Positions 4,219 through 39,008 of a stretch of DNA of 64,000 nt are shown one piece after another. Source of the stretch: Escherichia phage vB_EcoM_PHB05. The position numbers were made by a program, and so were the translations under genes. Numbering within the stretch: the first letter of the stretch is position 1; each line of letters starts with the position of its first letter. The notes under the pieces were generated by a model. The model saw only the letters and a program-made list of their open reading frames with translations, searched no databases and was not told the origin of the DNA. Location: sequence record NC_052652.1; one strand, 5' to 3'.

Positions 4219-6201
4219 TTGTTAGAAATTAACACTTCCAAGATTAAGAATACAGTAACGTTTACTGTAGATAAAGACAGTTTAAAAAATACTAAAGACG
4301 CAATTAAAAACCTTAAAACTTTTACAGAATCTATTGAACCATCTTTAAATATGACTAAAATGCGTCGTCAGTTTAAAAGTATGGAAGAGTATGCTAAAAG
4401 AATAAGGCAGCAAATGTCAGGTCTTGGCGGCGGTAATCCTCCACCAATCCCACCAACCGGAGGTTCAAGGGGCGGTGGTGGAAAAGGAGGAAGTGGTAGA
4501 GGTGGTTCTGGATCTTCTGGAGGACGTAAAACACCAGAGGAAAGAGCCGCAGAAGCCGCCGCTAAACGTGCAGCACTTGCTAATATGAAGCAAGACGATT
4601 TTAGTTTTAAAGCTATGCCTTTTACAAAAGCAGACAGCAGAATTCTAGAAAAATCTAAAAAGATTGTAGAAGAAACTGTTGAACTTTATCGTAAAGGCGT
4701 GATCACTAGCCAACAAATGAATAATACTTTGGCTAGACAGTTAGAAGAACTACGCAGATCTCATAAAGAGAAGAATGCACAGCTTCTTGATGAAGAGAGA
4801 GCTAGACGTAGAATTGCCCGTCTGCAAGAAGCAGAAGATAAAAGAAGACAGCGTATCCGAGAAAGAGAAAGAAAGGATTTCGAACGTCAGCAAAGAAGAG
4901 AGAAAGAAGCAAGACAACGCGACAGACAACGTAAGCTATCTGGTGTAGGTAATGCTGCCATTGCTCTTAACCCTGCTATGTTCGGTGCTGCTCTTTTAGG
5001 TGCTGGTTTATATCAAGGTATAAGTAAAATTGCCGAAAGTATTACTGCATCGGCAGAGCGTGTTAATATGGTTAGTAGAGGTGGTCAGAACGTACAGGTA
5101 AACCCTAACGCAATCTTAACAATGCGTACTTGGGGTGAAATGAACGGTGTAGACTCTGCTAGTATTATTAAAGCTATTGATAACCTTAAAGACGTTCGTG
5201 AACGTTTAGGTAACACTGTACTCCACTCTGAATTTGATGAAAAATCAGGTAAATGGAAAGGTGGAGATAGTGGTATTAATGAAATCATGAACAAATTTGG
5301 TTGGTCGAAGGAAGATGTTGCTAAATTCCAGAACAGACCTTTAGACTTTGTTCAAGCACTTGTTAATGAAGGTCAAAAAAGAGGAATGAACTCTGCGCAA
5401 ATTGGTCGTCTGATGGAAAACCTTGGTGATGACTTAATGCACTACCAACGTATGTTTTTGGACAATGGTAAAGAGTTTATGGAAGTCCTGAGAATGTTAA
5501 GTAATTCAGGTGCAACTCTTAACGATGAAAACATCAAAGCAGCACAAGATTTTGTTAAACTAAGAGCAGAAATTAGTGCAGCAGGAGAAGGTTTTACCAA
5601 TAACTTACTTGTAGGTTTTATGGATGGTTTAAAATCTGCACCAGATTTTGCAGAGAATATGAAAACTTTCCAAGAGGCTGCTCGTGGTCTTGGTGAAATG
5701 TCTGGTAGTATTGTAAGTAGCCTTGCAAAAATTGCAAAATATTTCCTTGATTTTTCAAATAAGGTTGGGCCAAAAAACAATACTAAAGAAGCTGTAAGAG
5801 ATTATTATAATGGTACGCAGTATGGGTACGATGCACAGGTTGGTGGTAATCCTTGGGCTTATTGGCCTATTGGAAGAGATCAACATAAACCTGAAAATCA
5901 ACCTTTAGGTGACTTTGATAGTAGTTTCTTAACTAGCGCCTTAAATCCAAGTGCTTCTAGTATTGGTTACAACAGACCTGATTTAACAGCATCTATGCTA
6001 ACACCACGCCAAGGTGTTCCAATACCGTTAAATCTACAGAATACGGTTGTTATCCCAGACAACGCATTCCAGATTAATGTTATTCCAGATGGTTATGGTT
6101 TTAGTAATTATCTAGATGCAACAATGAATACCAGTTTTAGTAACTTCTCACAAGGTTTAACTCTTCAGTTAAGCAGTGGACAATCTTCTACTGGTGGTTA
6201 A
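4219..6201 (+). CDS. Tail tape measure protein
   Basis: 660 aa; Gly-rich low-complexity stretch, Arg/Glu-rich coiled coil (ERARRRIARLQEAEDKRRQRIRERERK), hydrophobic segment; position after chaperone. Confidence 0.65.
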   Translation: MLEINTSKIKNTVTFTVDKDSLKNTKDAIKNLKTFTESIEPSLNMTKMRRQFKSMEEYAKRIRQQMSGLGGGNPPPIPPTGGSRGGGGKGGSGRGGSGSSGGRKTPEERAAEAAAKRAALANMKQDDFSFKAMPFTKADSRILEKSKKIVEETVELYRKGVITSQQMNNTLARQLEELRRSHKEKNAQLLDEERARRRIARLQEAEDKRRQRIRERERKDFERQQRREKEARQRDRQRKLSGVGNAAIALNPAMFGAALLGAGLYQGISKIAESITASAERVNMVSRGGQNVQVNPNAILTMRTWGEMNGVDSASIIKAIDNLKDVRERLGNTVLHSEFDEKSGKWKGGDSGINEIMNKFGWSKEDVAKFQNRPLDFVQALVNEGQKRGMNSAQIGRLMENLGDDLMHYQRMFLDNGKEFMEVLRMLSNSGATLNDENIKAAQDFVKLRAEISAAGEGFTNNLLVGFMDGLKSAPDFAENMKTFQEAARGLGEMSGSIVSSLAKIAKYFLDFSNKVGPKNNTKEAVRDYYNGTQYGYDAQVGGNPWAYWPIGRDQHKPENQPLGDFDSSFLTSALNPSASSIGYNRPDLTASMLTPRQGVPIPLNLQNTVVIPDNAFQINVIPDGYGFSNYLDATMNTSFSNFSQGLTLQLSSGQSSTGG

Positions 6202-6207
6202 TGGATA

Positions 6208-6236
6208 AAGCCTCGCTTCGGCGGGGCTTTTTATTT
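6208..6236 (+). terminator. Rho-independent terminator
   Basis: agcctcgc-ttcg-gcggggct hairpin followed by TTTTTATTT. Confidence 0.5.
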
Positions 6237-6239
6237 GTC

Positions 6240-6269
6240 TTGACAAAGAGTTGTTTTTCGTGATAAAAT
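6240..6269 (+). promoter_or_regulatory. Sigma70-like promoter (TTGACA, about 18-nt spacer, TAAAAT)
   Basis: TTGACA at 6240-6245 and TAAAAT at about 6264-6269, directly downstream of terminator and upstream of ORF 6317. Confidence 0.4.
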
Positions 6270-6316
6270 GAGTGATAAGGGAGAATGTTTCTTATCACAT
6301 TAAGAGGTAAAATTAT

Positions 6317-7033
6317 ATGGCAGCAAACACTCCAGAACAACACGTTCAAGCGGTTTATAAAGCGGAACAAGATATAAATTCTACAAAAAACACAAATAAC
6401 TCTGCCTCTACTGTGAAAGGGGAGAATGGTTTTTGTATTTTAGCAAGTGTTTACAATAGTGCAAGTGATCAATATATTCAAAACTACCAAGCTATAGTTT
6501 TTGATGCTGTGCCAAATATCGGTGTAAAACGCCAAGCAGATGTTACTAGCTATCCTGTAGAAAATGGTGCTAATGTGTCGGATCACGTTCAAGTTAAAAA
6601 TAATACTTTCTCTTTATCCGGGATGATTACAGAGACACCTGTAAGATTGATGCGGGATATGTTATATAGTGCTGGTGTTAACGGTACTCGTATCAGTCAA
6701 GCAATTACTTACTTAGATAAAATATTTGATGAAAGACAGCCTATCATTTTAATAACAGAACATAAGGTGTATGAGAATGTTATTTTGAAAGGCATATCAT
6801 ATGAATATCAAACAGAGTATGCAATGCAATTTGACTTGGAATTTGAACAAGTAAGATTAGTTTCTTACGGAGAAACCAACGCTATTGCACTTAAGACTCA
6901 ACCAAATAAAAACACAGGTGTTAAGAACAAAACAAACGCAACAGGTAGCAAACCAGATGCTGATTTGAACAAACGAGCAGGACAAGCAACAGGCACTGAA
7001 CATTTAAGTAATGACAGTCCAGACGGTAAGTAA
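6317..7033 (+). CDS. Hypothetical tail/baseplate protein
   Basis: 238-aa ORF with GAGG RBS; position after tape measure. Confidence 0.4.
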   Translation: MAANTPEQHVQAVYKAEQDINSTKNTNNSASTVKGENGFCILASVYNSASDQYIQNYQAIVFDAVPNIGVKRQADVTSYPVENGANVSDHVQVKNNTFSLSGMITETPVRLMRDMLYSAGVNGTRISQAITYLDKIFDERQPIILITEHKVYENVILKGISYEYQTEYAMQFDLEFEQVRLVSYGETNAIALKTQPNKNTGVKNKTNATGSKPDADLNKRAGQATGTEHLSNDSPDGK

Positions 7034-10339: not shown

Positions 10340-13215
10340 TGTCAAGAATTAAGCACAGAATTGACAATGTTTTTCAACTGATCGATGGACATATTCAGTT
10401 CTTAGATCGTAATACAGGTTTAACTGTAGATCCTACAGTGCAACACTATGTATTAAACCCACAAAACGTTCTAGCTAATAACAGACACTTTATAAACTGG
10501 ACTGCTCAAGAAGGGCAACCAAACGGGGATGCTACAACAGAAGGTCAATCCGTGCTTATTCTTGGTTGCGCTTATGCATACCTGGCTTCCGGCGATACAA
10601 AGTATTTAGACTCTGCTAAAAAATATTGGCAAGCCTATATAGATTACTTCTTTGGTGGTCAACCTATCCCAGATCCGCCAGCAAAATATCGCCCTAACTG
10701 GATTATTAACGGTAAAGAACCACGTCTTGCACACTATCCTCTTACAGATGATGGCTACCCTACACACGGAGGTTTTAAGGGTAGCTTAATGACGTGGACT
10801 AACGGTAGAACAGTTATTCCTCATGGTGCTCCACATTGGGGAGAATACCTTGACAAAGCATGGTTTGCTTTTAATGGTAATCTAGGATGGAACTCTGTAA
10901 ACGCTACAGTATATGCTGTTAATGCAGATGGAACAACAGATTGGTCTAAGAATGGAGATCAATGGGACGTTGATTGGATCATTGATCGTCTAGGACGTAA
11001 AGTTGATTGGGATGGAAATATCTTAGAAGAAGGTTTTCCAACATCTCAATACGGAACAGTTCAACTAAAAAATACTTCTGTAAACGGTACATATAAATTT
11101 AACTACGCAACTTGTAACCCTGTTGAACACGGTGGTTATTTAATGGAGCGTAACACTATGTGGCATAACAGACCAGTTAACGTTCCGGTAGAAATGGGCT
11201 TTCAGGATAATGCGTCAGATGCCGAAACTTGGTGGTGTGATGCTAATTACCTGATGTACCAAATTACAGGAGAAAGAAAATATTGGCTATGCTGGCAGTC
11301 TTCACTGTTAGTGTGTCAAGATTACTCAAACATTGATATGTTTGATAAATTCTTCCGTAAGTCTACATATGCAACTATCCCGTTTACAGATGGCATCTCT
11401 TACGATTATTCGTATCCATCTACAGCAATACCTAAATATTCAAGAGATACTTTAGGTTATATTGTTATTAGACAAGATGTTGCTGCTCAAACAACATTAG
11501 AACAGCAAGCCATTTGGTTTAAAGTTGATCAGAACTCTAAGTTACGAGTCCAGTTTCAAGGTGTAGATGACGCAGGAGATGGTATTCTTTTCCGTCCAGA
11601 GTTGGAATTAAGTAAGACCAAAGATGAAAATAACACAGTAACTTACCGTTGTGGCTTACCACTGGGTACAGCTAATATGACAAGCATGGATATTCCACTA
11701 TCCAGCTTTATGAGAAGCACCCCTCCGAATGGTGGAACATATATTATCGCAGACCCGCGAATTATTGTTGACTGGGGTGACAATACTGTGGTACAATATA
11801 AGTATGTAACAGGTATTGCTGGAACTAATAATGACCAGATTGTTACTGCATCAATGGATACGGATGGTGGTGTTACTGTTGGTTTTTGGTTAACTCCTAC
11901 ATCAAAAGCTAATGTTAAGTCTATTACATATAGAACATATGAAGATGACTTTAACATGACTATCACGGATGCTCAAGGTTGGAGATGGTGGGCTATGCTT
12001 CCTAAAACGCAAGGGGCATGGAGTACGAAGACTTTATCAGCTTCTGATTTTAAGTTAAGTGCTTACCAGCCTAATCATCCAGAAACAGATCCTAAACCTT
12101 CAGCAATAAACCTTACTGCTGTAGATCAGGTAAATTTAGTTCTCGATACGGCTCCTGTCAATGGTTTAACAGGAACAATAGATTTCTATTGTATTAACGA
12201 TGTACCTGAAAGATATTCGTCATCTTCTGGTGATGATTATACCATGTACTTCCGTATCACTGTACAGGCTTCAAATCCTCATACTGCTAAGTTAGGTGAT
12301 TGTACTATTATTGACTATAAGTTAAACAGTCTTAATTACACACCAGGAATAATTCCATTCTCTAATATCAGTGACCCAAACACTGCATTGTATGATGGTT
12401 GGCGTGGTATTCCATATCCAGGATACCAATACCCTTCCTTATACTGTTTTGCAGGTAGAGATATTGATTGGACGCGTTTAAATAACAGTATCAATTTCTT
12501 GTATGATGCTCAAATGTGGTTTTATAACACGTTTGATCCTGTGATGCCTGGGCCTATGGCACAAGCGTATGTGTGGGATCGTTGGGATGCAAGAAAATAC
12601 GGTGAACCGAATACGTTCACAATGAAACACTGGAATGAAAAAGCGTGGGATGGTTATGAAGCTCGTGCATTCTACTGTGCTTGTCATGCTGTATACGAAC
12701 TTGTACAAAGAGGAGAAACACCTCCTGAAAAACTGGTAACAGTTTGTAAAAATTGGATCAACTATCTTAAATGGTTCCAAGACAATAATGATGGAAGAAC
12801 ACCAACTATCTTTAACCCAGATGGTACAGTTCTTGCACCTATAGATGACTTTACTAGTCATATGTCGGCACTGTTTATGGCGGGTTGTTCAATCATGGGC
12901 TTGGCAGGTTATGATTCACAAATTCCAAACATTGGTATTGTAGCAGACAGATGTTTTGATCTGATTCAGCAAAACTATATTGTGCTTTCCCCTAACCATC
13001 CGATGAATGGTTGCTGGAGTGTTGCACCACGTCCAGATTCAGATAACGGAATGTTCTTTGGTTTCCATGCTGGAGAACTATTACGTGGTTTTGGTTTATA
13101 TGCCTTATATCGTAAACTAAATCCTCAAAACGCCTTACCAATTTTGGACAATAGTAACATACCGACACTAACTGTTCTAACTATGAATGATATTAGTGTT
13201 GATGTAACCAAATAA
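10339..13215 (+). CDS. Large virion-associated protein (fiber/baseplate-attached)
   Basis: 958-aa ORF in tail module; ATGA-type start overlapping upstream stop. Confidence 0.45.
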   Translation: MSRIKHRIDNVFQLIDGHIQFLDRNTGLTVDPTVQHYVLNPQNVLANNRHFINWTAQEGQPNGDATTEGQSVLILGCAYAYLASGDTKYLDSAKKYWQAYIDYFFGGQPIPDPPAKYRPNWIINGKEPRLAHYPLTDDGYPTHGGFKGSLMTWTNGRTVIPHGAPHWGEYLDKAWFAFNGNLGWNSVNATVYAVNADGTTDWSKNGDQWDVDWIIDRLGRKVDWDGNILEEGFPTSQYGTVQLKNTSVNGTYKFNYATCNPVEHGGYLMERNTMWHNRPVNVPVEMGFQDNASDAETWWCDANYLMYQITGERKYWLCWQSSLLVCQDYSNIDMFDKFFRKSTYATIPFTDGISYDYSYPSTAIPKYSRDTLGYIVIRQDVAAQTTLEQQAIWFKVDQNSKLRVQFQGVDDAGDGILFRPELELSKTKDENNTVTYRCGLPLGTANMTSMDIPLSSFMRSTPPNGGTYIIADPRIIVDWGDNTVVQYKYVTGIAGTNNDQIVTASMDTDGGVTVGFWLTPTSKANVKSITYRTYEDDFNMTITDAQGWRWWAMLPKTQGAWSTKTLSASDFKLSAYQPNHPETDPKPSAINLTAVDQVNLVLDTAPVNGLTGTIDFYCINDVPERYSSSSGDDYTMYFRITVQASNPHTAKLGDCTIIDYKLNSLNYTPGIIPFSNISDPNTALYDGWRGIPYPGYQYPSLYCFAGRDIDWTRLNNSINFLYDAQMWFYNTFDPVMPGPMAQAYVWDRWDARKYGEPNTFTMKHWNEKAWDGYEARAFYCACHAVYELVQRGETPPEKLVTVCKNWINYLKWFQDNNDGRTPTIFNPDGTVLAPIDDFTSHMSALFMAGCSIMGLAGYDSQIPNIGIVADRCFDLIQQNYIVLSPNHPMNGCWSVAPRPDSDNGMFFGFHAGELLRGFGLYALYRKLNPQNALPILDNSNIPTLTVLTMNDISVDVTK

Positions 13216-27480: not shown

Positions 27481-30300
27481 ATGTATCCTATTCCTTTATT
27501 TATGTCAACAACATCAGCTTCAGTAGTAACAGCTACATCTATAACCACTTCCTCTATTGGTATTGCAATAGTTGGTAGTAAAAAGCAACTGACATACACA
27601 GTTTCACCAGAAGATGGTGCGTTATTTGATATAGCTTTTTCATCTTCAGATAATACCAAAATGGTTATAGATAATAATGGTATGATGGAGTTTGTTGCTG
27701 AAGGCGGTTTTGATGCAATAATGACAGCTAAAAATAATTTAGGTGCTGTCTTAACTGATCAATCTGGTGGCTATGCTTCAGAATTAAGTGTGTACACTGA
27801 AAGTCTGTCTGCTATGGATGCAGGAACTACTCAACAATTGGTTGCTACAATCAGTCCAGAAGGTGCTAAAGACCTTCCAGACATGGTGATTACGTACACC
27901 ACAACAGATCCAGAAGTAGCTACTGTAAGTCCTACAGGGTTAATAACTGCTCTTAAAGATGGTAGTTGCCGTATAGGTTGTACTGCAACTTATCAAGGAA
28001 CAGTGGTGGCCTCTGATAGTTCTTATTTAGGTGTTAATGCTGTTCCTGTTATTTCTAATGTAACAGCCGTGGCAAACAGCTATGGAGACATTCGTGTTGC
28101 TTGGGATGTAGCTGATCCGCTAGATGGTGATACTTATACTGTAGAAGTATTAGATTTAAGTAATAACAGTGTCCAGTGGACTACAACAACCACGAATACT
28201 CATGCTTACTTTGATATCTCTGACTCTATTCCTCTTTATGGGTTTGCTCCAACATACCTTAAAATTAGCGTTAAGAGCACCAAAGCAGCACCCGTTATCT
28301 TTAATAACTCAATAGCTACAGATGATTCGTTCATTAAAGAAGTTATTGTCTTTGCTGGACAAGATAACGTAAATGCACACTTTACAGAACTATCTGGTGC
28401 AAATAAAGCAGTAATGAGTAGCACAACAACCCGTAATGCATATGCTACGCAACGTGGTTTAGCAAATGCTGAAGTTCTTCCGTTAAATGCAGCTTCTGGA
28501 TCATCAGCAGCAGATAAATATGCAGATGATAAAGCCGGAACAGGTACACCAGACAACTACTGGTATGATCTGGATAACGCAGCAGATGGGCCATGCTTAA
28601 CTAATTTTATCACTAAAGTCACACCTTATGCAAGTAAGGTTAAAGCAATTATTTGGGGACAAGGTGAAAATGATGCTGTATCAGCATCTTCGACTGTTGC
28701 AGGTAGATACAGTAACACTACACGTTACCATGATGCTACGATAGCTATCTTTGATAAGATGCGTACAATAGTTCCTGCTTCTCAAGCAAAAATTGTTTGG
28801 CAGATCCTAGGACGTTCTTATCTATATGGTGTAGAAGTTAATGGTGTGGATTGGCAGAAATACAGAAATGTACAAAGAACCATCTCTACAGCACGTGACG
28901 ATGTTATCATTGGTTCTTGGGTGGATGGTGCTGAACGCTACAGTGGTTATGTTTATGAAGAAGGTATTGATGGTCGTATCCATTATATTTCTTCTGTATA
29001 CCAAACAGCAGCTACAAAACTTGCTAAATCAGCAGCAGACGGTACAGACTTAACATCAACATCACCTGTTTGGGTTGATATGGCTGTTCCAACTGGAGCA
29101 ACAGCTATTTCCCAAGCTAATCAAGATACAATTTTAGCATGGGATGCTCAAGGTTATAGTAAACACTACTTCCGTAATATTAACGTCTTAACAGCATCTG
29201 TATTAACTGAACAAACGCTTAATACGAACAGTTATACGTTTACCTATGCAGATCAAGTAGAACAATATGGTTTTGCAGCAGGTACTACGATATTTGATGT
29301 TGCATATTATGACGAAGCAAATGATGTGTTATCTCCTTTAGTACGTTTTAATGTTAGCGTTACAGCAGGAAAAGTAGAAGATAAACCTGTCGTGATGGAC
29401 TATGATTTGACGCAAGAAACTCTTCCATCAGATGTTAAGGTTAATGGTGGGAACTCTTTTGCTCGTGCCTCTGGAGATATACTTGTAGCCACTAACACCT
29501 TGGTTGCTCCGTTGGAGTATGTTGGTACTACCCCTGTAGGTAGACGTGTAACAGCTAACACAGCTACACAAATTTTTGTCAACAACGCCTTAACAAGTGC
29601 AAGCCCGTGGGTAAAGACCAACTTAACTGTTGCAGCTTCATCTGATAAATCTCCGGCTGGAACTACTGCTAATGTATTCAAATTAACTCCGACTACAACC
29701 TCTGGTAGTCATATCTTAACTGCAACATATACTAACGCGTACAACATATCTGCCGGACGTAACTGGTCTGCCTCTGTTTTCTTGAAAGCGAACGGGATTA
29801 CTAAGGCCAAACTAAGATTAAAAGCAGGAACTGAAGTTAATGAGGGTACTTTTGATTTAGCAGCAGGTACATTCACAGGAAGTGAAGCTAATATTATATC
29901 TATGGGCAACGGTTGGTATCGTGCTATTCTGCATAAAACAGGGATAGCCAAACAGTCCTCCATAAGTTTTGAAATAATTGCCTTGGATGCAACTGGTGCG
30001 GAGATTTTCGCTGGAGATGGTACTAGTAACCTTGCAGTTTGGTTGCCACAGCTTGAAGGTGCTTCTACAGGAGAAACATCAAAAGCTGGATCGCCTTATG
30101 TCTGCACATATCCTGGAAATTTAGGAGGAGTATCCTTCACTATACCAAGGAACGGACATACTGGTGTGGATGTTTACTATTCCAACGGAGACGTTGTTCG
30201 TGATGTATTCTCTGGCACAGCATCTACTTGGACAATAAACTACTCCAGCTTGTACGATTGGGGATCAGTCTTTATTACAGGTTTGAAATATTACGACTAA
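27481..30300 (+). CDS. Tail fiber/spike with SGNH-esterase-like segment
   Basis: 939 aa; N-terminal Ig-like region; central AIIWGQGENDA motif reminiscent of SGNH/sialate-O-acetylesterase-type hydrolases. Confidence 0.45.
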   Translation: MYPIPLFMSTTSASVVTATSITTSSIGIAIVGSKKQLTYTVSPEDGALFDIAFSSSDNTKMVIDNNGMMEFVAEGGFDAIMTAKNNLGAVLTDQSGGYASELSVYTESLSAMDAGTTQQLVATISPEGAKDLPDMVITYTTTDPEVATVSPTGLITALKDGSCRIGCTATYQGTVVASDSSYLGVNAVPVISNVTAVANSYGDIRVAWDVADPLDGDTYTVEVLDLSNNSVQWTTTTTNTHAYFDISDSIPLYGFAPTYLKISVKSTKAAPVIFNNSIATDDSFIKEVIVFAGQDNVNAHFTELSGANKAVMSSTTTRNAYATQRGLANAEVLPLNAASGSSAADKYADDKAGTGTPDNYWYDLDNAADGPCLTNFITKVTPYASKVKAIIWGQGENDAVSASSTVAGRYSNTTRYHDATIAIFDKMRTIVPASQAKIVWQILGRSYLYGVEVNGVDWQKYRNVQRTISTARDDVIIGSWVDGAERYSGYVYEEGIDGRIHYISSVYQTAATKLAKSAADGTDLTSTSPVWVDMAVPTGATAISQANQDTILAWDAQGYSKHYFRNINVLTASVLTEQTLNTNSYTFTYADQVEQYGFAAGTTIFDVAYYDEANDVLSPLVRFNVSVTAGKVEDKPVVMDYDLTQETLPSDVKVNGGNSFARASGDILVATNTLVAPLEYVGTTPVGRRVTANTATQIFVNNALTSASPWVKTNLTVAASSDKSPAGTTANVFKLTPTTTSGSHILTATYTNAYNISAGRNWSASVFLKANGITKAKLRLKAGTEVNEGTFDLAAGTFTGSEANIISMGNGWYRAILHKTGIAKQSSISFEIIALDATGAEIFAGDGTSNLAVWLPQLEGASTGETSKAGSPYVCTYPGNLGGVSFTIPRNGHTGVDVYYSNGDVVRDVFSGTASTWTINYSSLYDWGSVFITGLKYYD

Positions 30301-30302
30301 TA

Positions 30303-30332
30303 AAAAAGGAGCCATTAGGCTCCTTTTCTTTT
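30303..30332. terminator. Bidirectional terminator at convergence of the two transcription blocks
   Basis: ggagcc-atta-ggctcc hairpin flanked by A-tract (5') and T-tract (3'). Confidence 0.55.
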
Positions 30333-30335
30333 ATC

Positions 30336-30716
30336 TTAATCAGTGAAAATTACGCTCACATCTTCTTTAGAGAAGAGTTTATGATCTTCACCTTTTGTCT
30401 CAAGAGTTTCATACAGGTTAAGAAGTTCTGAAACATCTTTCTCTACCAGTTTCTTCAATGTTGCAATTTTCTGTTTGCGACTCTTAATACGTTCAGCTAC
30501 GACCTTACGTTGGTATCCAGCAGTACGATAACCTGAGAAAGTTACACCAGTAAGACTTGCAGTTACAGGATCGTAGTGACGTTCAATCTGAAATTTATTA
30601 AAAGGTACAGCGTCATCACGAATAATCTTACCGCCATTACTTACTTGACGAAGACCAGTAACTTGTTCCAGTCGTGCCATAGAAATCTTTGGAGACAGAC
30701 CAGAGTCCAGGTTCAT
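30336..30716 (-). CDS. Hypothetical protein
   Basis: ORF 30336..30767; start trimmed to internal Met (30716) to avoid overlap with methyltransferase gene; start uncertain. Confidence 0.3.
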   Translation of the reverse strand: MNLDSGLSPKISMARLEQVTGLRQVSNGGKIIRDDAVPFNKFQIERHYDPVTASLTGVTFSGYRTAGYQRKVVAERIKSRKQKIATLKKLVEKDVSELLNLYETLETKGEDHKLFSKEDVSVIFTD

Positions 30717-30723
30717 ACCGTTG

Positions 30724-31455
30724 TTAATCAGTGCTTTCAGGGTGATTTTGCTGTTCAGTGTACTCATTTAGTCGTTCCTCCGCTTGCTTAAAAATATTTA
30801 CATCGGCTTCACAGCCTAAGTATTCTCTACCTGTTAAAAGTGCCGCAACTTGTGTTGTTGCACTTCCAGAGAAGAAGTCTAAGACTACATCTCCTTCGTT
30901 GGTATGTATATTAATAAGGTCACAAAACAAAGTCAAGTGTTTTTGTGTTGGATGAAAACGATCTGCTCCTTGATAGATAGGATACTCAAACACACCCTTA
31001 TGGTAGGAAGCATTGAAGGTTGGCTTCGAACCTTTAACACAAACAATAGCCATCTCTTTAGCGTTACTAAGGTAGTTAACACCACTATTGATGGGTACAG
31101 GGTTTGTTTTAATCCATTCAATAGTACGGAACATACGAAAACCAAGCGGTTCAAGGATTTCACGTAGCTCCTGGATCTTCCAGATATCATACCAAACTAT
31201 GCAAGTACCACCTTTTCTAAGCACCCTATAGGCTTCTTTGAATACTTCTTTAAAGTAAGGAATATCTACAACGTCCCAGTCACCAAAGTTGTAAGATACA
31301 CGGAATCTATCCGTATTTTTTCCAGTAGGCTCTCCAGATTGAAAATTTGTGTCACGAGAAATAGCATATGGTGGGTCAGTAAGAATCAAATCTACACTAT
31401 TGCTTTCGAGGGTTTGCAGGTAGTTTAATGCAGTGTTGTTTACAAATTCGCTCAT
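30724..31455 (-). CDS. DNA methyltransferase, beta-class amino-MTase (N6-adenine or N4-cytosine)
   Basis: DPPY catalytic motif near N-terminus and FFSGSATT AdoMet-binding motif near C-terminus; GAAGGAGA RBS. Confidence 0.7.
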   Translation of the reverse strand: MSEFVNNTALNYLQTLESNSVDLILTDPPYAISRDTNFQSGEPTGKNTDRFRVSYNFGDWDVVDIPYFKEVFKEAYRVLRKGGTCIVWYDIWKIQELREILEPLGFRMFRTIEWIKTNPVPINSGVNYLSNAKEMAIVCVKGSKPTFNASYHKGVFEYPIYQGADRFHPTQKHLTLFCDLINIHTNEGDVVLDFFSGSATTQVAALLTGREYLGCEADVNIFKQAEERLNEYTEQQNHPESTD

Positions 31456-31467
31456 TATATCTCCTTC

Positions 31468-31493
31468 AAAGAAAAGGAGCCGTTAGGCTCCTT
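31468..31493 (-). terminator. Stem-loop ggagcc-gtta-ggctcc (near-identical to hairpin at 30308)
   Basis: Perfect 6-bp stem, downstream of minus-strand gene 31516..32463 with T-tract on minus strand. Confidence 0.4.
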
Positions 31494-31515
31494 ATATTCA
31501 CACAATATTTAACTA

Positions 31516-32463
31516 TTAGAAACAGTGCAGGAAGTTTCGACCATATTGCAAACCAATAGGAGCAAACGGGATATCATCATCGAAATCTTGAACAACAGGT
31601 TCTGGTTCTTTCGGTGCTGGCTCTTTCTTCTCTACTTTTTTAGTTTCTTTCTTAACTTCTTGTACTGGGGTAGACATTCCACGGATAGCCGCAGCTACTT
31701 TATCAGACAAAGCAAGAACTTCACGAGCAGCTTCAATAATCTCTTCTGCCGTTACAGTTTTACCTGTATGATCACGACAAGCGTTAAGAATTGCGTGTCC
31801 AACTGAAGCACCAAGATCATAGTCAGTCACATCAACACCACGATCTTTAGCAATTTCAGCTTTCAGAGTAACAGTTGCAGATTGTACCACACCAGCCAAA
31901 TCGAAAGCATCACCTTTCACACCAGCACGTAGAAGCTCCAGAGCGCCGTTTACAGCGTGTCCTGTTTCAATCCCTACGGTATCACGTTTTTTGTAGTTAG
32001 GCTTGTTACCGTCATTATTAGATGGCTTATTTCCACCTTTTGAAGAGGATTGCGCTTGCTGAACACCTTCTGTTGAAAGAATAGTGATTTTACCTTTAGA
32101 GGAGTTGTAGTATGTTTTGCCATTCCATTCAGAAGGTTTAACATCCATAGTTAGTTCTACACCTTTTTCGATAGTAACCCACTTATCACCATCTTTAACT
32201 TGCAGGTTTTCATGTTCTGGGTGCAGTTTAACTTCACCTAAGCTAACCCAAACACCTTTATCATCAGCACCAGCACCTTTCTCTTTAATAAGCAGAGATG
32301 CTTTGTGAGTTGATTCAATTTTCTTATCTGGCTGACCTGCAACCTTAATATAAGAAACTTTCATTTCATCAAACTTATCTAGTTTGACATATTCGACAAT
32401 ACCTTCAGCCCAGAATGCTTCTTTTTTAGTACGACGGTCGATTTCAGAATTAATTACTGGCAT
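31516..32463 (-). CDS. Putative ssDNA-binding-like protein carrying an SSB-type DFDDDIPF tail motif
   Basis: 315 aa; beta-rich N-terminal region, Lys/Pro-rich linker, then DFDDDIPF 15 residues before the C-terminus. Confidence 0.4.
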   Translation of the reverse strand: MPVINSEIDRRTKKEAFWAEGIVEYVKLDKFDEMKVSYIKVAGQPDKKIESTHKASLLIKEKGAGADDKGVWVSLGEVKLHPEHENLQVKDGDKWVTIEKGVELTMDVKPSEWNGKTYYNSSKGKITILSTEGVQQAQSSSKGGNKPSNNDGNKPNYKKRDTVGIETGHAVNGALELLRAGVKGDAFDLAGVVQSATVTLKAEIAKDRGVDVTDYDLGASVGHAILNACRDHTGKTVTAEEIIEAAREVLALSDKVAAAIRGMSTPVQEVKKETKKVEKKEPAPKEPEPVVQDFDDDIPFAPIGLQYGRNFLHCF

Positions 32464-32479
32464 AAATTCTCCTCTATAA

Positions 32480-32878
32480 TTACATTACTTTAACACAAAA
32501 CTCTCGTAAAAGAGTAGCGTCAGTTTCTTCCAACAGGTATTTACCAAGACCAATACCAAATCCTATTTCACCACTTTCAAAATGGAGAATTTGTATCTTT
32601 TCTCCACCAAGGTTAATTACTTTTGCTTTTCCAGGATTGTCCAAAACATCTCGTATTGTGTCCTGTAGTAGCATAAGTTCACGTTTTGTGATAGTGGTTT
32701 CAGATATCTCTTTGTCTTCTACCCGCACTGTTAAACGGTTGTATCCACCAAAGAGACATAGTATTTGAATAAAAAAGGTATTATCTTGAGGTTCAACATC
32801 TTTTTTAGTTAGTTCAAGACGATTAGTTTCTCTACTATAGAACGTCTCGACTAAGATTTTAGAACGATTGTCTGTCAT
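32480..32878 (-). CDS. Hypothetical protein
   Basis: 132-aa ORF. Confidence 0.35.
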   Translation of the reverse strand: MTDNRSKILVETFYSRETNRLELTKKDVEPQDNTFFIQILCLFGGYNRLTVRVEDKEISETTITKRELMLLQDTIRDVLDNPGKAKVINLGGEKIQILHFESGEIGFGIGLGKYLLEETDATLLREFCVKVM

Positions 32879-32921
32879 TCAAGTTCTCATAATAACACAT
32901 AATTGTAAGGTTTGTCAACAC

Positions 32922-33536
32922 TTAAATCTTAAATTCTTCGTTGTTAAACGAATCCAGTGTACGTACTTCTGGTTCTTTGGGAATGAAAACGTCTTTTACA
33001 AAGCGGAACATAGGGAAACGTTCTGCCATTTTACGGACGTGTGCTTCTTTACCTGTGTATCGGTGATTAATAGTGCAAATATTAGTCTTCAATGCAAAGT
33101 CAAAATCTGGATGATATACATAATTTTGACCATCCCAGTAACACAGGCAAATAGCTACGTCAAAGTTCCATACGATTTCACTGCGTACACCCTCTTCCAT
33201 GATCATAAAGTTAAACTTAAGATCTTTATAGTATGCTTCAAATACCCATTTCAAATGTGGTAGTTCGGCATAAGTGTGTTCTGTTTGCTTAGTAAGTTGT
33301 TTAACATTACGTGCACCAACACCCAACATCAAAAATTTCTCTACCAGTACGGTTGTATTGTGGTTAGGCATACGCAAGTAAATGTCAATATCTTGCGCAG
33401 GTGTTTCTAATCGCCAGTCGCGTACAGCGCCGCCAGCTACAATTGCAAACGGATCTACCAGTTGGCACATACGTAATACTTCTAAAGCGCGTACTTTTTG
33501 ATCTTCAATATTCATATTTTCTCCTATCGTGTCCAC
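32922..33536 (-). CDS. Nucleotidyltransferase-fold protein (CCA-enzyme/poly(A) polymerase head-domain-like)
   Basis: Motif FAIVAGGAVRDWRLE...DIDIY matches GGxVRD...DxD signature of class II tRNA nucleotidyltransferase heads. Confidence 0.45.
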   Translation of the reverse strand: MDTIGENMNIEDQKVRALEVLRMCQLVDPFAIVAGGAVRDWRLETPAQDIDIYLRMPNHNTTVLVEKFLMLGVGARNVKQLTKQTEHTYAELPHLKWVFEAYYKDLKFNFMIMEEGVRSEIVWNFDVAICLCYWDGQNYVYHPDFDFALKTNICTINHRYTGKEAHVRKMAERFPMFRFVKDVFIPKEPEVRTLDSFNNEEFKI

Positions 33537-34120
33537 TCTTTATGTTGTTCTACATGCTCAAGCATTTCATTATACAGTGCTTTAAGATGTGGAACAACTC
33601 TTTCATCTTCAGTTTCAAAGAATTTTGTAAGCTGTTCTGCTTTAGCTTTCAACCAGCAAAGATGCGCTTCAATTTCAGTATTAAAACGCCCCAGCGTTTT
33701 CATGCGACCGTCTACTTTTATATTGGCTTTGTATTTATTACGATCTTTTTCGTAACTACAGCCTACCATAGTTCCATGAGATCTTTTACTTACTCTATAA
33801 GCTAAGAACTTATTAAGATCTCCTGTTACTAAAAGACAGGTATCGGGAGAGTAAACCCTCCCTCCTATAATATCTTTATCAAGTTCTAAGTTTTCCCAGT
33901 TTTCCCAAGTTTGCAACCAGGAGTAGAAATTTGAGAACAGTTTCCATTCTTCACAAACCGTCACCCCCTTATAACAAGGATCACGTTCTTGTTGGCAAGG
34001 GGAGTAACACCTCCCCAACATAGCCATCCATTTCATATAATGCGGCGTTAGTTTCTTACTACCAGGTAGCGTACTCTCGCCTTGCAAATCATTAATACCT
34101 TCACCATATACGGTAAGCAT
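33524..34120 (-). CDS. Homing-endonuclease-like protein (AP2-type DNA-binding region)
   Basis: 198 aa; Cys-rich N-terminal half and AP2-like segment YKANIKVDGRMKTLGRFNTEIEAHLCW; freestanding between replication genes. Confidence 0.35.
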   Translation of the reverse strand: MLTVYGEGINDLQGESTLPGSKKLTPHYMKWMAMLGRCYSPCQQERDPCYKGVTVCEEWKLFSNFYSWLQTWENWENLELDKDIIGGRVYSPDTCLLVTGDLNKFLAYRVSKRSHGTMVGCSYEKDRNKYKANIKVDGRMKTLGRFNTEIEAHLCWLKAKAEQLTKFFETEDERVVPHLKALYNEMLEHVEQHKEWTR

Positions 34121-34147
34121 AAAAACTCCTTTAAAATCAAAGAGATG

Positions 34148-36727
34148 TCAGTGACAACTGGCCCATGAGTTACCAACATCGTAACCAGCAGTGAGAGGTA
34201 CATTAAGATTGTAATACTCACCAGCTTTATTAACAGCGATAGATGCTAATTCTCCAGCACGACTGTAGGCTGTAAACCAACCACCTTTCGGAGATTCATG
34301 TACGTTAGCCCAAATCTTGCCAGTACGTTTCTCTTCCTCTTCTTTCCAGGCGTTAACTTTATCCAAACATTCTTTATCAATTTTCTTTTGTTCTTCTGGA
34401 TCATCAACTTGAGTCCAACCTAAAGATTCTTTAGAGAACCATTTAAAATGAACCAGATCACGAGTTACTTCAAGCTGTGCTTCATCGTGATATGCAATCA
34501 TTTGTTGAACGAATGACTTATTTTTCCAGTCATCAACAAAAAAGTCAACAGCTAATCCTTCTTCTTCGATAAGATCGTCGTAGATAACCATTGCTCTTTT
34601 TGCACAAATAACACCACCACTCTGGAACAGAGAGTTAAGTATTGCGTGTGCAGATCGTGTAGGTACTTTCCTACCATCAATACCCAGAATGTATTTCTTA
34701 CCTGTTTTAACCCAGAAATCATGCAGACGTTCTTTAAGAAGTGCAAGAGGTTTTGCAGCTTCCCAGAAAGCATCGTATACAAGCTGTCCTGTATACATAT
34801 CACTACCAATAGTTTTTGCTACTTTTGCAGCTTGAGCACCATAAGTAATACCATACTTAACAGATTTAGCAGGGCTTCGTTCAAACTTACGACCAATAGT
34901 ATCAGAAATACGTCGAGCCATCATTGTATGAACATCATTAGGTTTTTCCAACAACAGAGCATTACAATATTCGTGTGGTTCCTGCTCGTACCGCCAACAG
35001 TAGTGTGATTCTATTTTTGCCTCAAGAGAATCAAAGTCATAACCAATTTGGAAGTATTTTGGAACTTCTACACCAAATAAGTTACGCATTTCATATCCGT
35101 ACAGAGATGTTACACGTGGGATATTTGCTACTAACCTATGTTTCATACGAGACGTAGCTGCATCACACGTTGCAGCAGGAGTTGGTATACGACCATCAGC
35201 CCTTACTGCCGCCAGATAACCTTTATCGTAATCCTCTTCATCTTCTTCCCAATCAGCGCCACCCCCTAGAATAGAGTTTCTACGATGTTTATACGTAAGA
35301 TACTGCACAATCTGCGTAGCATAAGGAAACTTTTCACCTAGTGCTTCCAAGTTAGGACAAATATCCTTCTCTTGCCCTTTTGTAAAGGAAGGGTTAGTAA
35401 GCACTTTAACACCACGACCTTTAGCTTTAGCAATACGATCTCTTAGTTTCCATTCCAAAGTTTCTGGTGTGCACTCCAGATGATCACATCTGTCCTGGCA
35501 GAAGTTAGATGCTAATGTTTGATCAACATAGTCACGAATAGCTTTCTCCATTTGTGCTTCATCTTTCTTAATCTTAGTGCCAGATTTAAGAGTGATATCT
35601 TTATCTTTATATTCAGATGGACTCCAACCTAAACCAACTAACCAATTTTTAATATGTGTAGTGTCGTCTAAAGTAGCAGGCACTGTAGGATCACAAATAG
35701 GTTCTTCTGCTGGAATAGGTAGTTTAAACTCTTTACCTAATGCAAATAACCACCAACCATCTTCTTTTTGTACAAGTTCACCAGAATGTTTCTCTGCAAA
35801 CTTTATCATGTTACTTGAAGGCTCACCATTCTTTTTAAACTGGAGTTTAGGTGGAATGAATGATTTCAAATAACCTTTAGTAGCAGGTTTAGGAGGTAGC
35901 ACAGGTTCTGCCTCTAAACGACATGCTTCCATTCGAGCATCCAGATCACGAATATTATCTTCTGCTTGTTTCATATTGAAAGCAAAGCCACGGTGCTCTT
36001 GACGTGTAATAATATCAGCTACACGTTGTTCTAAGTTAAATGGTTCAGACCACTTATTATAATCACCCCACTCTTCCATCAAATAACGGAACACTGCGGT
36101 GTTAGCTTTGTTATCGTAAATACAGTAATACAGCATATCTGCTGCAAATGTTCTAAATCTTTCAGTTTCAGGAATGTTTTTTCTAAAATCAATTTTAACA
36201 TCCCCTCCAGCTTTCTTAGATAACTCTGCCAGACTATGACCACCGAAGCGATCAGGGTTTAGTGTCTTACTTAAGATCATAGTATCACAAATTTCAATGT
36301 TACTATTACCCCAAGTATTGTACTTAATACTGTAGTTGAGTTTAAAAAATAATTTAATTGCCAGTAAGTCGAAGTTAATGATGTTGTGTCCAACTACTTT
36401 GGTAATTTTATAGTTTGAATTACCTTTAAATTTACCTGTTCCATTTACAAAATCAGGAAAATCTTTAAGAGGGAAATGGGTATATTCTAAATGCTCATAT
36501 TCCTCCAGTCGGTATTCATACTTTCCGTCAGTCTCAATATACGGACGACCATCGAAAAGATATTTATCACCATCATGGAAAGCAATAATCTCTCCAGTAT
36601 CATGACTTTCACACACAATACAGTGCATTGCAAAACTATCTTTTAAACGATATGGACTTGCCAAGTAATCTACACTTTCGTCATTAAGCAAGTTGTTACT
36701 TTCAATGTCGAAAGTAAAAGCTCCCAT
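34148..36727 (-). CDS. DNA polymerase, family A (T7-like), with 3'-5' exonuclease domain
   Basis: 859 aa; N-terminal FDIE exonuclease motif; motif B-like KYGITYG and motif C YHDE. Confidence 0.85.
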   Translation of the reverse strand: MGAFTFDIESNNLLNDESVDYLASPYRLKDSFAMHCIVCESHDTGEIIAFHDGDKYLFDGRPYIETDGKYEYRLEEYEHLEYTHFPLKDFPDFVNGTGKFKGNSNYKITKVVGHNIINFDLLAIKLFFKLNYSIKYNTWGNSNIEICDTMILSKTLNPDRFGGHSLAELSKKAGGDVKIDFRKNIPETERFRTFAADMLYYCIYDNKANTAVFRYLMEEWGDYNKWSEPFNLEQRVADIITRQEHRGFAFNMKQAEDNIRDLDARMEACRLEAEPVLPPKPATKGYLKSFIPPKLQFKKNGEPSSNMIKFAEKHSGELVQKEDGWWLFALGKEFKLPIPAEEPICDPTVPATLDDTTHIKNWLVGLGWSPSEYKDKDITLKSGTKIKKDEAQMEKAIRDYVDQTLASNFCQDRCDHLECTPETLEWKLRDRIAKAKGRGVKVLTNPSFTKGQEKDICPNLEALGEKFPYATQIVQYLTYKHRRNSILGGGADWEEDEEDYDKGYLAAVRADGRIPTPAATCDAATSRMKHRLVANIPRVTSLYGYEMRNLFGVEVPKYFQIGYDFDSLEAKIESHYCWRYEQEPHEYCNALLLEKPNDVHTMMARRISDTIGRKFERSPAKSVKYGITYGAQAAKVAKTIGSDMYTGQLVYDAFWEAAKPLALLKERLHDFWVKTGKKYILGIDGRKVPTRSAHAILNSLFQSGGVICAKRAMVIYDDLIEEEGLAVDFFVDDWKNKSFVQQMIAYHDEAQLEVTRDLVHFKWFSKESLGWTQVDDPEEQKKIDKECLDKVNAWKEEEEKRTGKIWANVHESPKGGWFTAYSRAGELASIAVNKAGEYYNLNVPLTAGYDVGNSWASCH

Positions 36728-36794
36728 TCTCCCTCCTTAAAATATTTCTAAAGTCTTAATTTGTTAATACTGTACCATAAATTAATTGTTTTGT

Positions 36795-36814
36795 AAAGGG
36801 GCTTTCGCCCCTTC
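36795..36814 (-). terminator. Stem-loop aggggc-tttc-gcccct (reverse complement identical to hairpin at 25436)
   Basis: Perfect 6-bp stem between minus-strand genes. Confidence 0.35.
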
Positions 36815-36817
36815 TTG

Positions 36818-37213
36818 TTATTTATTGTCAGCACTTAATTGTACTTTAATAAGGCAATTAGGGACACCATTGGTATTTCTCAAGCCTACACGGTCAATTT
36901 TAACTGTTCCTGTTAAGCCACTAAAAGTGGAAACAATGTTATTAATGTTTTCATCCTTACTAGCGATATCAAGAACAACTTTATCACTAACATTTTTCAG
37001 CATGCGATCTACAAGCTCTCCCACAAAACCACTGGTAGTTTGAATGAGAAGGTATAGGCAACCATCCTCAAACCACAAATGTTCGCCATAAGCATAACCG
37101 TATGGTTCTAACTCCGATCCATCTTGAAATTTAAACTTGGCAATAGTTTTCGTATAATCATACCCTAACGCAGAAGGGGATACCCCATAGAGGATATTTT
37201 CGTTGTCTTTCAT
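36818..37213 (-). CDS. Hypothetical protein
   Basis: ORF 36818..37342 trimmed to Met at 37213, which has AAGGAGAG RBS and removes overlap with primase-helicase. Confidence 0.4.
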   Translation of the reverse strand: MKDNENILYGVSPSALGYDYTKTIAKFKFQDGSELEPYGYAYGEHLWFEDGCLYLLIQTTSGFVGELVDRMLKNVSDKVVLDIASKDENINNIVSTFSGLTGTVKIDRVGLRNTNGVPNCLIKVQLSADNK

Positions 37214-37223
37214 ATTTCTCTCC

Positions 37224-38996
37224 TTAATAAGAACCATCAGGAATATTCTCTGGGTTACTTGTGTATTGATCGTAATCGTGAAGTGTCGCTGTTTTAATCT
37301 CATAGAAGAAACTACCTGCTGCACCAGTCTCTGAGAACTCACGGTTCTTTAGGATGTAGCAATATGTGCGGTTACGTTCCATAGGATCTTCAGCTTGTTT
37401 ATCACGCTCCAGCGCAATTGTGATACCAGCACCTTTAGCAAGGAAGCTACTACCCATTGCATCATCTTCTACAATATGTTCATTACTATTGTTAGAAGAC
37501 TTTTTAACGTGTGAAATTACAACAATGGTAATTGCGTACTCTTTCATAATGCGTTTGAGCCACGTCGCAAGTTCCTCTTGTTGTGACACGTCCATACCAG
37601 AAAGCAAGTCAGAATAAGGGTCGATAACAAGAATGGTTACTCCGAAATAAATAATCATTTCCAGAACCTTCTCTTTAATCACATCTACGTTAGCTCCACG
37701 ATCATCACAAACATAGAAACGTGGTGTTCCATCTTCTCGTTCGTAAAAATCACGAATCTTTTCTTCATTATCTTTTAAAATCTTTTCCTTCTCTTCTTTT
37801 GTTTTACGGTGAAGAGGGATGTGCAAGAATGAAGACAATAAGTTACGAGAATACTTCTTATACGTTGCCTCCAAAGATAAAATACCAAGAGTATGTTCTG
37901 GGTGTGCAAGAATAATGTGCTTTGTAATCTCGTTAACCAACAGTGTTTTACCGATACTTGTTTTTGCAAGTATAACAGTAATTTCTTCTTCTACCAAGCC
38001 TCCACCTAACATATTAGAAGCAACACGCATGAATGGAGGAAGGGTGATCATTTTAGCTTCCAGGCATTCCAAGGCTGCTTCATACAGTACGTTAGAAGCA
38101 TAAACACCAGCAGGTGTGTACAGTTTAGCTTTGAAAAAACGATCAAGAAAGTGATCAATTTTTCCTTCTACTAGTGCCTGGTTAGGATCTTTAACATCCG
38201 TTAGTTCCATCACATAAACTTTATTACGTGGTAAGATTTTAACACATTTCTCAACTGCTGCACGTCCAGCTTCATCATTATCCATACACAGAACAATCTT
38301 TTTAAATTGATCTAAAAATTTATAACGATGTTGAAGCTGCTTATGCAGAGATGTTTCGCCACAAGTACCAGATACTACAGCAGGAACAGGATATTTACCG
38401 CCCTTGTTATAATCTTTTAGCATCTGTGTTGCAGCCAGCATATCGTGTTCACCACCAACGATTAGAATAGTACCGCTGTGGTTACGATATTTAAACTCCC
38501 CAAAAAGATCACAATCCTTTCCTGTTTCACCAATAGGATGTGAAAAATCTTTTGGATCGATACGTTGTTTATACCCAGCAATATTGTAATCTTTAGTTGT
38601 AGGGTATAATGTTGAAATTACTTCGCCAGTAGCTTCATCGTACATATAGCGTACACCGAAAGGTTTAGAGATATCTTCACGAATACCGCGATAACCTTTT
38701 GGATTAGTTCCAGTGCTGGCTTTTAGCTTATCATGTACTTCTGGATTAAACTCACTACCCAAGATATCCTCCTCTTCAATTTCTTCGCCGTGTGCATTTA
38801 ACCATTTTTGATCAGGGATAGTAAAGCCACAAGAAAAACAATGTGCGCCTCGATGGTCTTCATCGGCATCTAAGCCATATACCATCAAATTGTTTTGTGA
38901 TCGATCACGCCCTCCTTTCATACAACGAGGACACCCAGTATGTCCTTCTTGACTTAGGTCAATGTTATACCCATATTTATTTACAACATAAGACAC
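37224..38996 (-). CDS. DNA primase-helicase (T7 gp4-like)
   Basis: 590 aa; N-terminal Cys4 zinc ribbon (CPRC...CFSC), central TOPRIM-like region, C-terminal P-loop helicase region. Confidence 0.8.
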   Translation of the reverse strand: MSYVVNKYGYNIDLSQEGHTGCPRCMKGGRDRSQNNLMVYGLDADEDHRGAHCFSCGFTIPDQKWLNAHGEEIEEEDILGSEFNPEVHDKLKASTGTNPKGYRGIREDISKPFGVRYMYDEATGEVISTLYPTTKDYNIAGYKQRIDPKDFSHPIGETGKDCDLFGEFKYRNHSGTILIVGGEHDMLAATQMLKDYNKGGKYPVPAVVSGTCGETSLHKQLQHRYKFLDQFKKIVLCMDNDEAGRAAVEKCVKILPRNKVYVMELTDVKDPNQALVEGKIDHFLDRFFKAKLYTPAGVYASNVLYEAALECLEAKMITLPPFMRVASNMLGGGLVEEEITVILAKTSIGKTLLVNEITKHIILAHPEHTLGILSLEATYKKYSRNLLSSFLHIPLHRKTKEEKEKILKDNEEKIRDFYEREDGTPRFYVCDDRGANVDVIKEKVLEMIIYFGVTILVIDPYSDLLSGMDVSQQEELATWLKRIMKEYAITIVVISHVKKSSNNSNEHIVEDDAMGSSFLAKGAGITIALERDKQAEDPMERNRTYCYILKNREFSETGAAGSFFYEIKTATLHDYDQYTSNPENIPDGSY

Positions 38997-39008
38997 ATGA
39001 TTCTCCTA

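Follow-up and report, generated by a model that had tools for sequence, protein, structure and literature searches.

[quoted passage not shown] The assignment of fold and family is close to certain. As for function, the reading we favour, at a probability of roughly 0.4, is that the protein is an active enzyme expressed with the phage replication genes and has a counter-defence role like that of Gad2. A role at the phage–host interface is favoured because the gene is located among replication genes, has diverged about twice as much as its neighbours and is remotely homologous to Gad2. Catalytic activity, a counter-defence role and Gabija or a related nuclease–helicase system as the target are inferences.

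Gene call and family membership

The window derives from a phi92-like E. coli myophage of Justusliebigvirus (Stephanstirmvirinae); over positions 30000-39000 it shares 99.0% identity with phage W22 and 97-99% with some 50 further records. The first-pass annotation, made from the sequence, had placed a 204-aa protein at 32922-33536. A minus-strand open reading frame with these limits and a GTG start does exist in the ORF list, but the coding sequence is probably shorter, starting at the ATG at 33513-33515 (197 aa) and not at the GTG at 33536. The ATG is preferred because a GGAG ribosome-binding site (33521-33524) lies 5 nt upstream of it, an extension to the GTG would cover the stop codon of the neighbouring HNH-like gene (33524-33526), the RefSeq length is 197 aa in phages alia and phi92, a 98%-identical relative (L015) lacks the in-frame GTG extension, and the alignments of the family begin at the methionine encoded by the ATG. 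The two parts of the reading frame are as follows.

32922..33515, minus strand: NTase coding sequence (orthologue of Phi92_gp158), 197 aa, stop codon included; ATG start, with matches to PHROG 1614 and YP_009985141.1
33516..33536, minus strand: upstream part of the mechanically called reading frame, probably untranslated, with the GTG at 33534-33536; judged from the sequence, the missing extension in L015 and the annotated length of 197 aa

The reading frame is a real gene and not a chance one, because it has 54 close phage records (95-99% amino acid identity, with 140 more distant ones), 483 clusters in a profile search and a match to PHROG 1614 'nucleotidyltransferase' (E 3.1e-34, residues 7-193); the gene is under selection. 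A word-indexed search with the single NTase sequence returned its own cluster only, and an exhaustive HMMER profile search over 1.84 billion representatives was used instead; the 483 clusters were those found at E<=1e-3, and nearly all of their members have 175-220 residues and match from end to end. Neither the gene nor its family is new: RefSeq already names the protein (Phi92_gp158) a 'nucleotidyltransferase', as it does the 99%-identical YP_009985141.1 of phage alia, some submitters label it 'putative tRNA nucleotidyl transferase/poly(A) polymerase', and the family is present in both PHROGs and Pfam. The precomputed Pfam annotation assigns PF26128.2 'Gad2' to the 99%-identical cluster representative (P0001) and to most relatives, and by these profile matches the NTase belongs to the family catalogued as PHROG 1614 and Pfam PF26128 'Gad2'; this cataloguing, as well as the relation to the anti-Gabija protein Gad2, had been missed in the first-pass annotation. 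A phmmer search of the NTase against PDB sequences gave nothing meaningful, NCBIfam and PADLOC searches gave no usable matches, and no Pfam domains were found in the N- and C-terminal extensions of longer relatives. Protein gp2 of phage KP34 was also considered as a relative and rejected (hhalign probability 0.2%).

The family and similar short head-only NTases occur in myoviruses, T7-like podoviruses, vibriophage ICP1 and giant viruses. The ICP1 homologue ORF223 (Vibrio phage ICP1_2006_A; locus L005, 4959-5541) has 137-139 aa and ends after the head domain, and it is followed by a separate 60-aa open reading frame, so that the gene is either split or truncated. In addition, a 355-kb contig of GCA_041156625.1 (L007) carries two members of the family, of 219 and 280 aa (6001-6660 and 10375-11217), about 4 kb apart in a large phage-like region full of small open reading frames.

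Fold, active site and class II motifs

An AlphaFold2 model built from an alignment of 79 relatives (22-42% identity), the same alignment that was used for conservation, reached a pLDDT of 93.8 and a pTM of 0.85. When this model was compared with all PDB chains by Foldseek, the first 41 matches were class II enzymes with 150-200 aligned columns, and the structural alignments took in about 175-200 residues, just the head and neck, of these enzymes of 370-520 residues. The modelled protein is thus a class II head plus part of the neck, which agrees with the first-pass view of a stand-alone protein too short to include a tRNA-binding body. Strands assigned by DSSP in the model follow the order 25-27, 43-48 (bearing the DxD), 69-74, 88-96 and 99-106. 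The signature GGAVRD...DIDIY, from which the class II head had been proposed, is present and forms motif A; with numbering from the probable ATG start, its two halves occupy residues 28-33 and 42-46.

33414..33437, minus strand: first half of motif A, A27-G28-G29-A30-V31-R32-D33-W34, the NTP-binding GG loop and helix, from conservation
33378..33392, minus strand: second half of motif A, D42-I43-D44-I45-Y46, with the two metal-binding aspartates on strand 2, from conservation

Residues G28, G29, D42 and D44 are invariant in the 79 relatives, while A27, A30, R32, D33 and W34 are conserved in at least 90% of them and Y82 and K162 are near-invariant. D42 and D44 are also invariant in the Gad2 homologues. 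The invariance of the GG loop and the DxD across such divergent members argues for a working nucleotide-binding, metal-dependent site, and the pol-beta-like fold of the model, with class II enzymes at the top of the Foldseek list, and the presence of the catalytic aspartates bear out the proposed head domain.

[quoted passage not shown] The NTase, however, is half as long, lacks their body and tail, and belongs to a family in which class II motif B, motif D and the flexible loop are unconserved. Sequence similarity is limited to motif A, a stretch that aligns to class II chains 6IBP, 1OU5, 3AQK and 1MIV. The PolyA_pol profile (PF01743) scores 20.1 bits on the NTase, under its gathering cut-off of 23 bits, and reaches E<=0.01 in just 12 of the 79 relatives; a profile–profile comparison against class II sequences aligned from the PDB gave a probability of 90%. 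At the level of sequence profiles, homology to class II enzymes is thus real but remote.

The class II motifs A-E, including EDxxR as an amino-acid template for CTP and ATP, were defined previously (PMC11784652). Motif B (RRD, ribose recognition) is absent from the NTase, where the corresponding stretch reads VWNFD and the columns are variable in the family (column 119: D21 P20 S17 G10 A9), and motif D (EDxxR) was not found in the neck, where the family conserves [HY]159 and K162. Of motifs A-E, only A is recognizable in the NTase, and the protein is probably not a CCA-adding enzyme.

The third catalytic carboxylate is likely altered as well. In the nucleotidyltransferase fold, a third acidic ligand is located on strand 5, beside the DxD strand (PMC11646218); in the B. 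stearothermophilus enzyme (1MIV) this ligand is E79 in AYEVTTF, a residue invariant in the class II alignment made from PDB chains. The expected position in the NTase falls on predicted strand 99-106.

33210..33212, minus strand: codon of N102, on predicted strand 99-106, at the expected position of the third carboxylate, placed by alignment column and DSSP with low confidence in the register

Position 102 holds the only conserved polar residue of this strand (of the 79 relatives, 61 have Gln, 16 Asn and 2 Asp), and in the Gad2 homologues the aligned residue, Q89, is nearly invariant, with one Glu. The hhalign register here is of low confidence and disagrees with the assignment by topology: in it, the Gln strand is matched to the strand that follows the flexible loop in class II enzymes. 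On the model, the third carboxylate is likely replaced by an amide (Gln or Asn in 77 of 79). Residue E93 is acidic in 56 of the 79 relatives and, in the predicted hairpin of strands 88-96 and 99-106, is expected to lie cross-strand from residue 102. Normal two-metal catalysis is not assured, since the third ligand is probably Gln or Asn.

Replication-gene neighbourhood and divergence

On the minus strand of the window, the NTase gene lies in the order primase/helicase, a 174-aa open reading frame, family A DNA polymerase (PolA), HNH-like gene, NTase, 132-aa protein, 315-aa protein and a Dam-like methylase. The relevant neighbours are listed below.

34148..36727, minus strand: family A DNA polymerase (PolA), a recurrent neighbour of the NTase, from annotation
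33524..34120, minus strand: HNH-endonuclease-like gene, 198 aa, matching PHROG 953 at 7e-75 and with no Pfam match
32480..32878, minus strand: 132-aa protein of PHROG 16560, from annotation and synteny
31516-32463, minus strand: 315-aa 'hypothetical' protein of PHROG 4477, with an SSB-like acidic tail (...DFDDDIPF)

The homing-endonuclease-like neighbour noticed in the first pass is supported by the HNH PHROG match, but its adjacency is incidental, because Phapecoctavirus and Pseudomonas phage PsgM04F, which have small open reading frames at the position of the HNH gene, keep the order PolA, NTase, 132-aa protein and a protein of about 300 aa. The HNH-like insertion between PolA and NTase was found in Justusliebigvirus only. 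The close relatives SD2 and PaulScherrer carry an intein in PolA, and this intein together with the HNH insertion makes the stretch look like a hotspot for selfish elements.

Some observations concern the other neighbours. The 132-aa protein was rejected as a general partner of the NTase, being confined to Stephanstirmvirinae-like phages while the NTase is much wider. The 315-aa protein, whose C-terminal part weakly matches an SSB PHROG and whose synteny with the NTase is kept throughout the Stephanstirmvirinae-like phages, is probably an un-annotated phage single-strand DNA-binding protein. A 143-aa open reading frame downstream of the Dam-like N6/N4 methyltransferase gene (Pfam 1.8e-30) shares 44 nt with it (30336-30767 and 30724-31455, minus strand). 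'Campylobacter phage C3' (MG065656.1) and 'B15' (MG065650.1) match phi92-like or phAPEC8-like E. coli phages in this region, C3 being 99% identical in amino acids to the 132-aa protein of the window and B15 scoring exactly like phAPEC8-like phages; the Campylobacter host label of both is probably wrong.

For a wider view of gene context, 80 IMG/VR loci and loci from other sources were collected, their genes were called and the neighbours clustered, and dereplication, with NTases less than 70% identical between lineages, left 50 lineages. Within 6-kb flanks, a gp4-like T7-type primase/helicase is present in 30 of the 50 lineages and PolA in 25; one or both are found in 35, nearly always on the same strand and in varying order. 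In several T7-like contigs the NTase lies exactly between primase/helicase and PolA, and it is a fixed, syntenic gene in all Stephanstirmvirinae-like phages examined. By contrast, no more than 6 of 58 loci have tRNA genes within 6 kb of the NTase, and the 64-kb window contains no tRNA gene. As exceptions to this general lack of association, an array of 10 tRNA genes lies 2.5 kb downstream of the NTase in one 148-kb IMG/VR phage (L020; 6001-6519 and 9155-11108), and a lone tRNA-Arg(tct) occurs close to the gene at five other loci.

These distributions bear on the possibility, which we regard as unlikely, that the protein tails or repairs the 3' ends of tRNA or other RNA as a minimal CCA- or A-adding or poly(A)-type enzyme, and would thereby restore defence-damaged tRNAs or shut down host RNA. 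All of the closest solved structures are CCA-adding enzymes or poly(A) polymerases, motif A is class-II-like, some submitters chose a tRNA nucleotidyl transferase name, one relative lies close to the 10-tRNA array, and the related MenT NTase toxins act on tRNA acceptor ends (PMC11541572). Set against this are the missing motif B, motif D, tRNA-binding body and tail, the sub-threshold PolyA_pol score, the rarity of nearby tRNA genes, and the fact that many carriers are T7-like contigs of roughly 45 kb. CCA repair in particular, raised in the first pass as repair of tRNA 3' ends, is unlikely, because the tRNA-specific elements have been lost and the association is with replication genes and not with tRNA genes. 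Repair of the damage done by OLD-family tRNases was also considered and rejected, as OLD cuts the anticodon arm, which a CCA-like enzyme could not mend.

The same neighbourhood might instead point to an enzyme of a T7-type replisome module that extends primers or the 3' ends of phage DNA without a template, which could also block end-sensing defences and hence overlaps with the counter-defence explanation. Such an activity would fit the strong association with gp4-like primase/helicase and PolA, which holds whatever the gene order, the direct adjacency to PolA in several T7-like contigs and the fixed position by PolA and the SSB-like gene in Stephanstirmvirinae. The loss of the ribose-discriminating RRD is compatible with the use of dNTPs, and Gabija acts at DNA ends (PMC12407980). 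Nevertheless, we consider this quite improbable, given that a DNA-binding domain was not detectable in the NTase by Pfam (extensions of relatives included) and that the NTase diverges much faster than true replisome genes. The gap between the homologues of T7 genes 4 and 5 is, moreover, a known site of small accessory genes, which also counts against a part in the replisome.

Between genera, the NTase is 34-36% identical, compared with 75-79% for PolA, 69-82% for the primase/helicase, 61-63% for the SSB-like protein and 55-56% for the 132-aa protein; flanking genes overall are 55-87% identical. The NTase is therefore the fastest-evolving gene of the module, its divergence being about twice that of its neighbours, as one would expect for a protein engaged in a conflict with the host.

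Gad2, proposed role and known systems

Gad2 was reported as a 400-aa protein of SPbetaL7 (ORF_159), the knockout of which makes the phage sensitive to Gabija, and a 394-aa homologue from B. laterosporus blocks Gabija; AlphaFold suggested an NTase domain in Gad2, and the published list of homologues includes short forms of 214-278 aa (bioRxiv 10.1101/2023.05.01.538930). As late as February 2026, the way in which Gad2 acts was described as unsolved (PMC12904381). By hhalign, the NTase family matched the verified B. laterosporus Gad2 with 92% probability (E 6.7e-7), and an alignment of ten Gad2 homologues, namely the verified one and nine more from supplementary table 10 of its authors (bioRxiv 10.1101/2023.05.01.538930), with 97.9% probability (E 3.3e-13, 147 columns). 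The match covers residues of about 24-176 of the Gad2 profile only, that is, the N-terminal head and neck; a profile of the N-terminal approximately 200 residues of the ten homologues found no related chain among PDB sequences.

Under the favoured reading, the NTase would be made along with the T7-type replication genes, would hold an NTP by its GGAxRDW loop and two invariant aspartates, and would pass the nucleotide to a host- or defence-related acceptor, a transfer that might shield the replicating phage from host immunity as the distant relative Gad2 does against Gabija. Candidate acceptors are the 3' end of an RNA, an end of DNA, a protein of a defence system and a small nucleotide. Counting against a counter-defence role, the NTase is fixed and syntenic, whereas many anti-defence genes are variable accessories. 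A narrower version is doubtful, in which the short GGAPRDW proteins would be a minimal catalytic form of Gad2, template-independent, with Gln in place of the third carboxylate, situated in T7-type replisome modules and disarming Gabija-like immunity enzymatically, for example through nucleotidylation of DNA ends, of a defence protein or of a nucleotide ligand of GajA; if this held, the 197-aa protein would be the simplest handle on the Gad2 mechanism.

It is very unlikely that the NTase makes a small nucleotide serving as a signal, decoy or competitor ligand, although its small size and the lack of a nucleic-acid-binding module are compatible with this, and GajA is controlled by nucleotide binding (bioRxiv 10.1101/2023.05.02.539174). 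A precedent is provided by MNT-like phage NTases, which make cGAMP to block TIR-STING (bioRxiv 10.1101/2022.06.09.495361). Those enzymes (BCP1, Av05; Ho et al.) are likewise small phage proteins of the pol-beta superfamily used against host immunity, but they belong to a different, MNT/KNT-like clade with a demonstrated cyclic dinucleotide product (cGAMP/cAA), their motif GS-x-AY[GAN]T-x4-SDxD is not in the NTase, which has AGGAVRDW-x7-DID, and they were neither a sequence match nor a top structural match to it. Least probable of all is a catalytically impaired nucleotide binder, a pseudoenzyme or sponge acting by binding and not by transfer, as might be suggested by the Gln or Asn that 77 of 79 members, like the Gad2 homologues, have where the third carboxylate is expected, since the motif A aspartates and GG loop are strictly invariant, as is typical of working active sites, and the acidic E93 (56 of 79) is predicted to lie beside residue 102.

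Gabija is among the commonest bacterial defence systems, and Gad2 is a known inhibitor of it. If the short E. coli phage proteins do the job of Gad2, they would offer a small, well-predicted enzyme for its chemistry; their carriers phi92 and BASEL Bas60-62 are genetically tractable phages. The family also shows how the core of a tRNA-processing enzyme can be stripped down and reused by phages. What is new here is that the short GGAPRDW subfamily is explicitly tied to Gad2, that its lost class II motifs are listed, that Gln or Asn is shown to be conserved where the third ligand probably lies, that the association with T7-type replication modules is put in numbers and that the gene is seen to diverge fast in comparison with its neighbours.

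Among known proteins of similar size, the stand-alone CCA-head protein NP_344798.1 of S. pneumoniae (PDB 2LA3) is bacterial and not phage-encoded, is 9% identical to the NTase and has no detectable sequence relationship to the family profile. Gp22 of Klebsiella phage fHe-Kpn01, which stands for a group of short PcnB-like NTases in T7-like phages, is a stand-alone class-II-like NTase of 182 aa encoded directly after the phage PolA; it aligns with the NTase family over 27 residues of motif A only, and its corresponding strand (CEIDVLF) has retained acidic residues. Overexpression of Gp22 is toxic in E. coli (PMC7291057), but this toxicity was rejected as evidence for the NTase family, as motif A alone aligns. 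A cytotoxic 'nucleotidyltransferase', gp22, adjoining the primase/helicase, was also described for P. putida phage Emajogi (2026 preprint).

Gad2 itself differs from the NTase in its length of about 400 aa, with 200-250 C-terminal residues that have no counterpart in the NTase and may be the part that targets Gabija, and in having GGxITS where the NTase family has GGAPRDW; identity between the two is remote (about 18-24%), and anti-Gabija activity has been demonstrated only for the long Bacillus and Brevibacillus proteins. Both are nevertheless phage-encoded, both have lost the class II RRD and EDxxR, and both share the AGG...DxD, the Gln strand and, following it, a motif-B-like F-D-x-x-[IV]-C.
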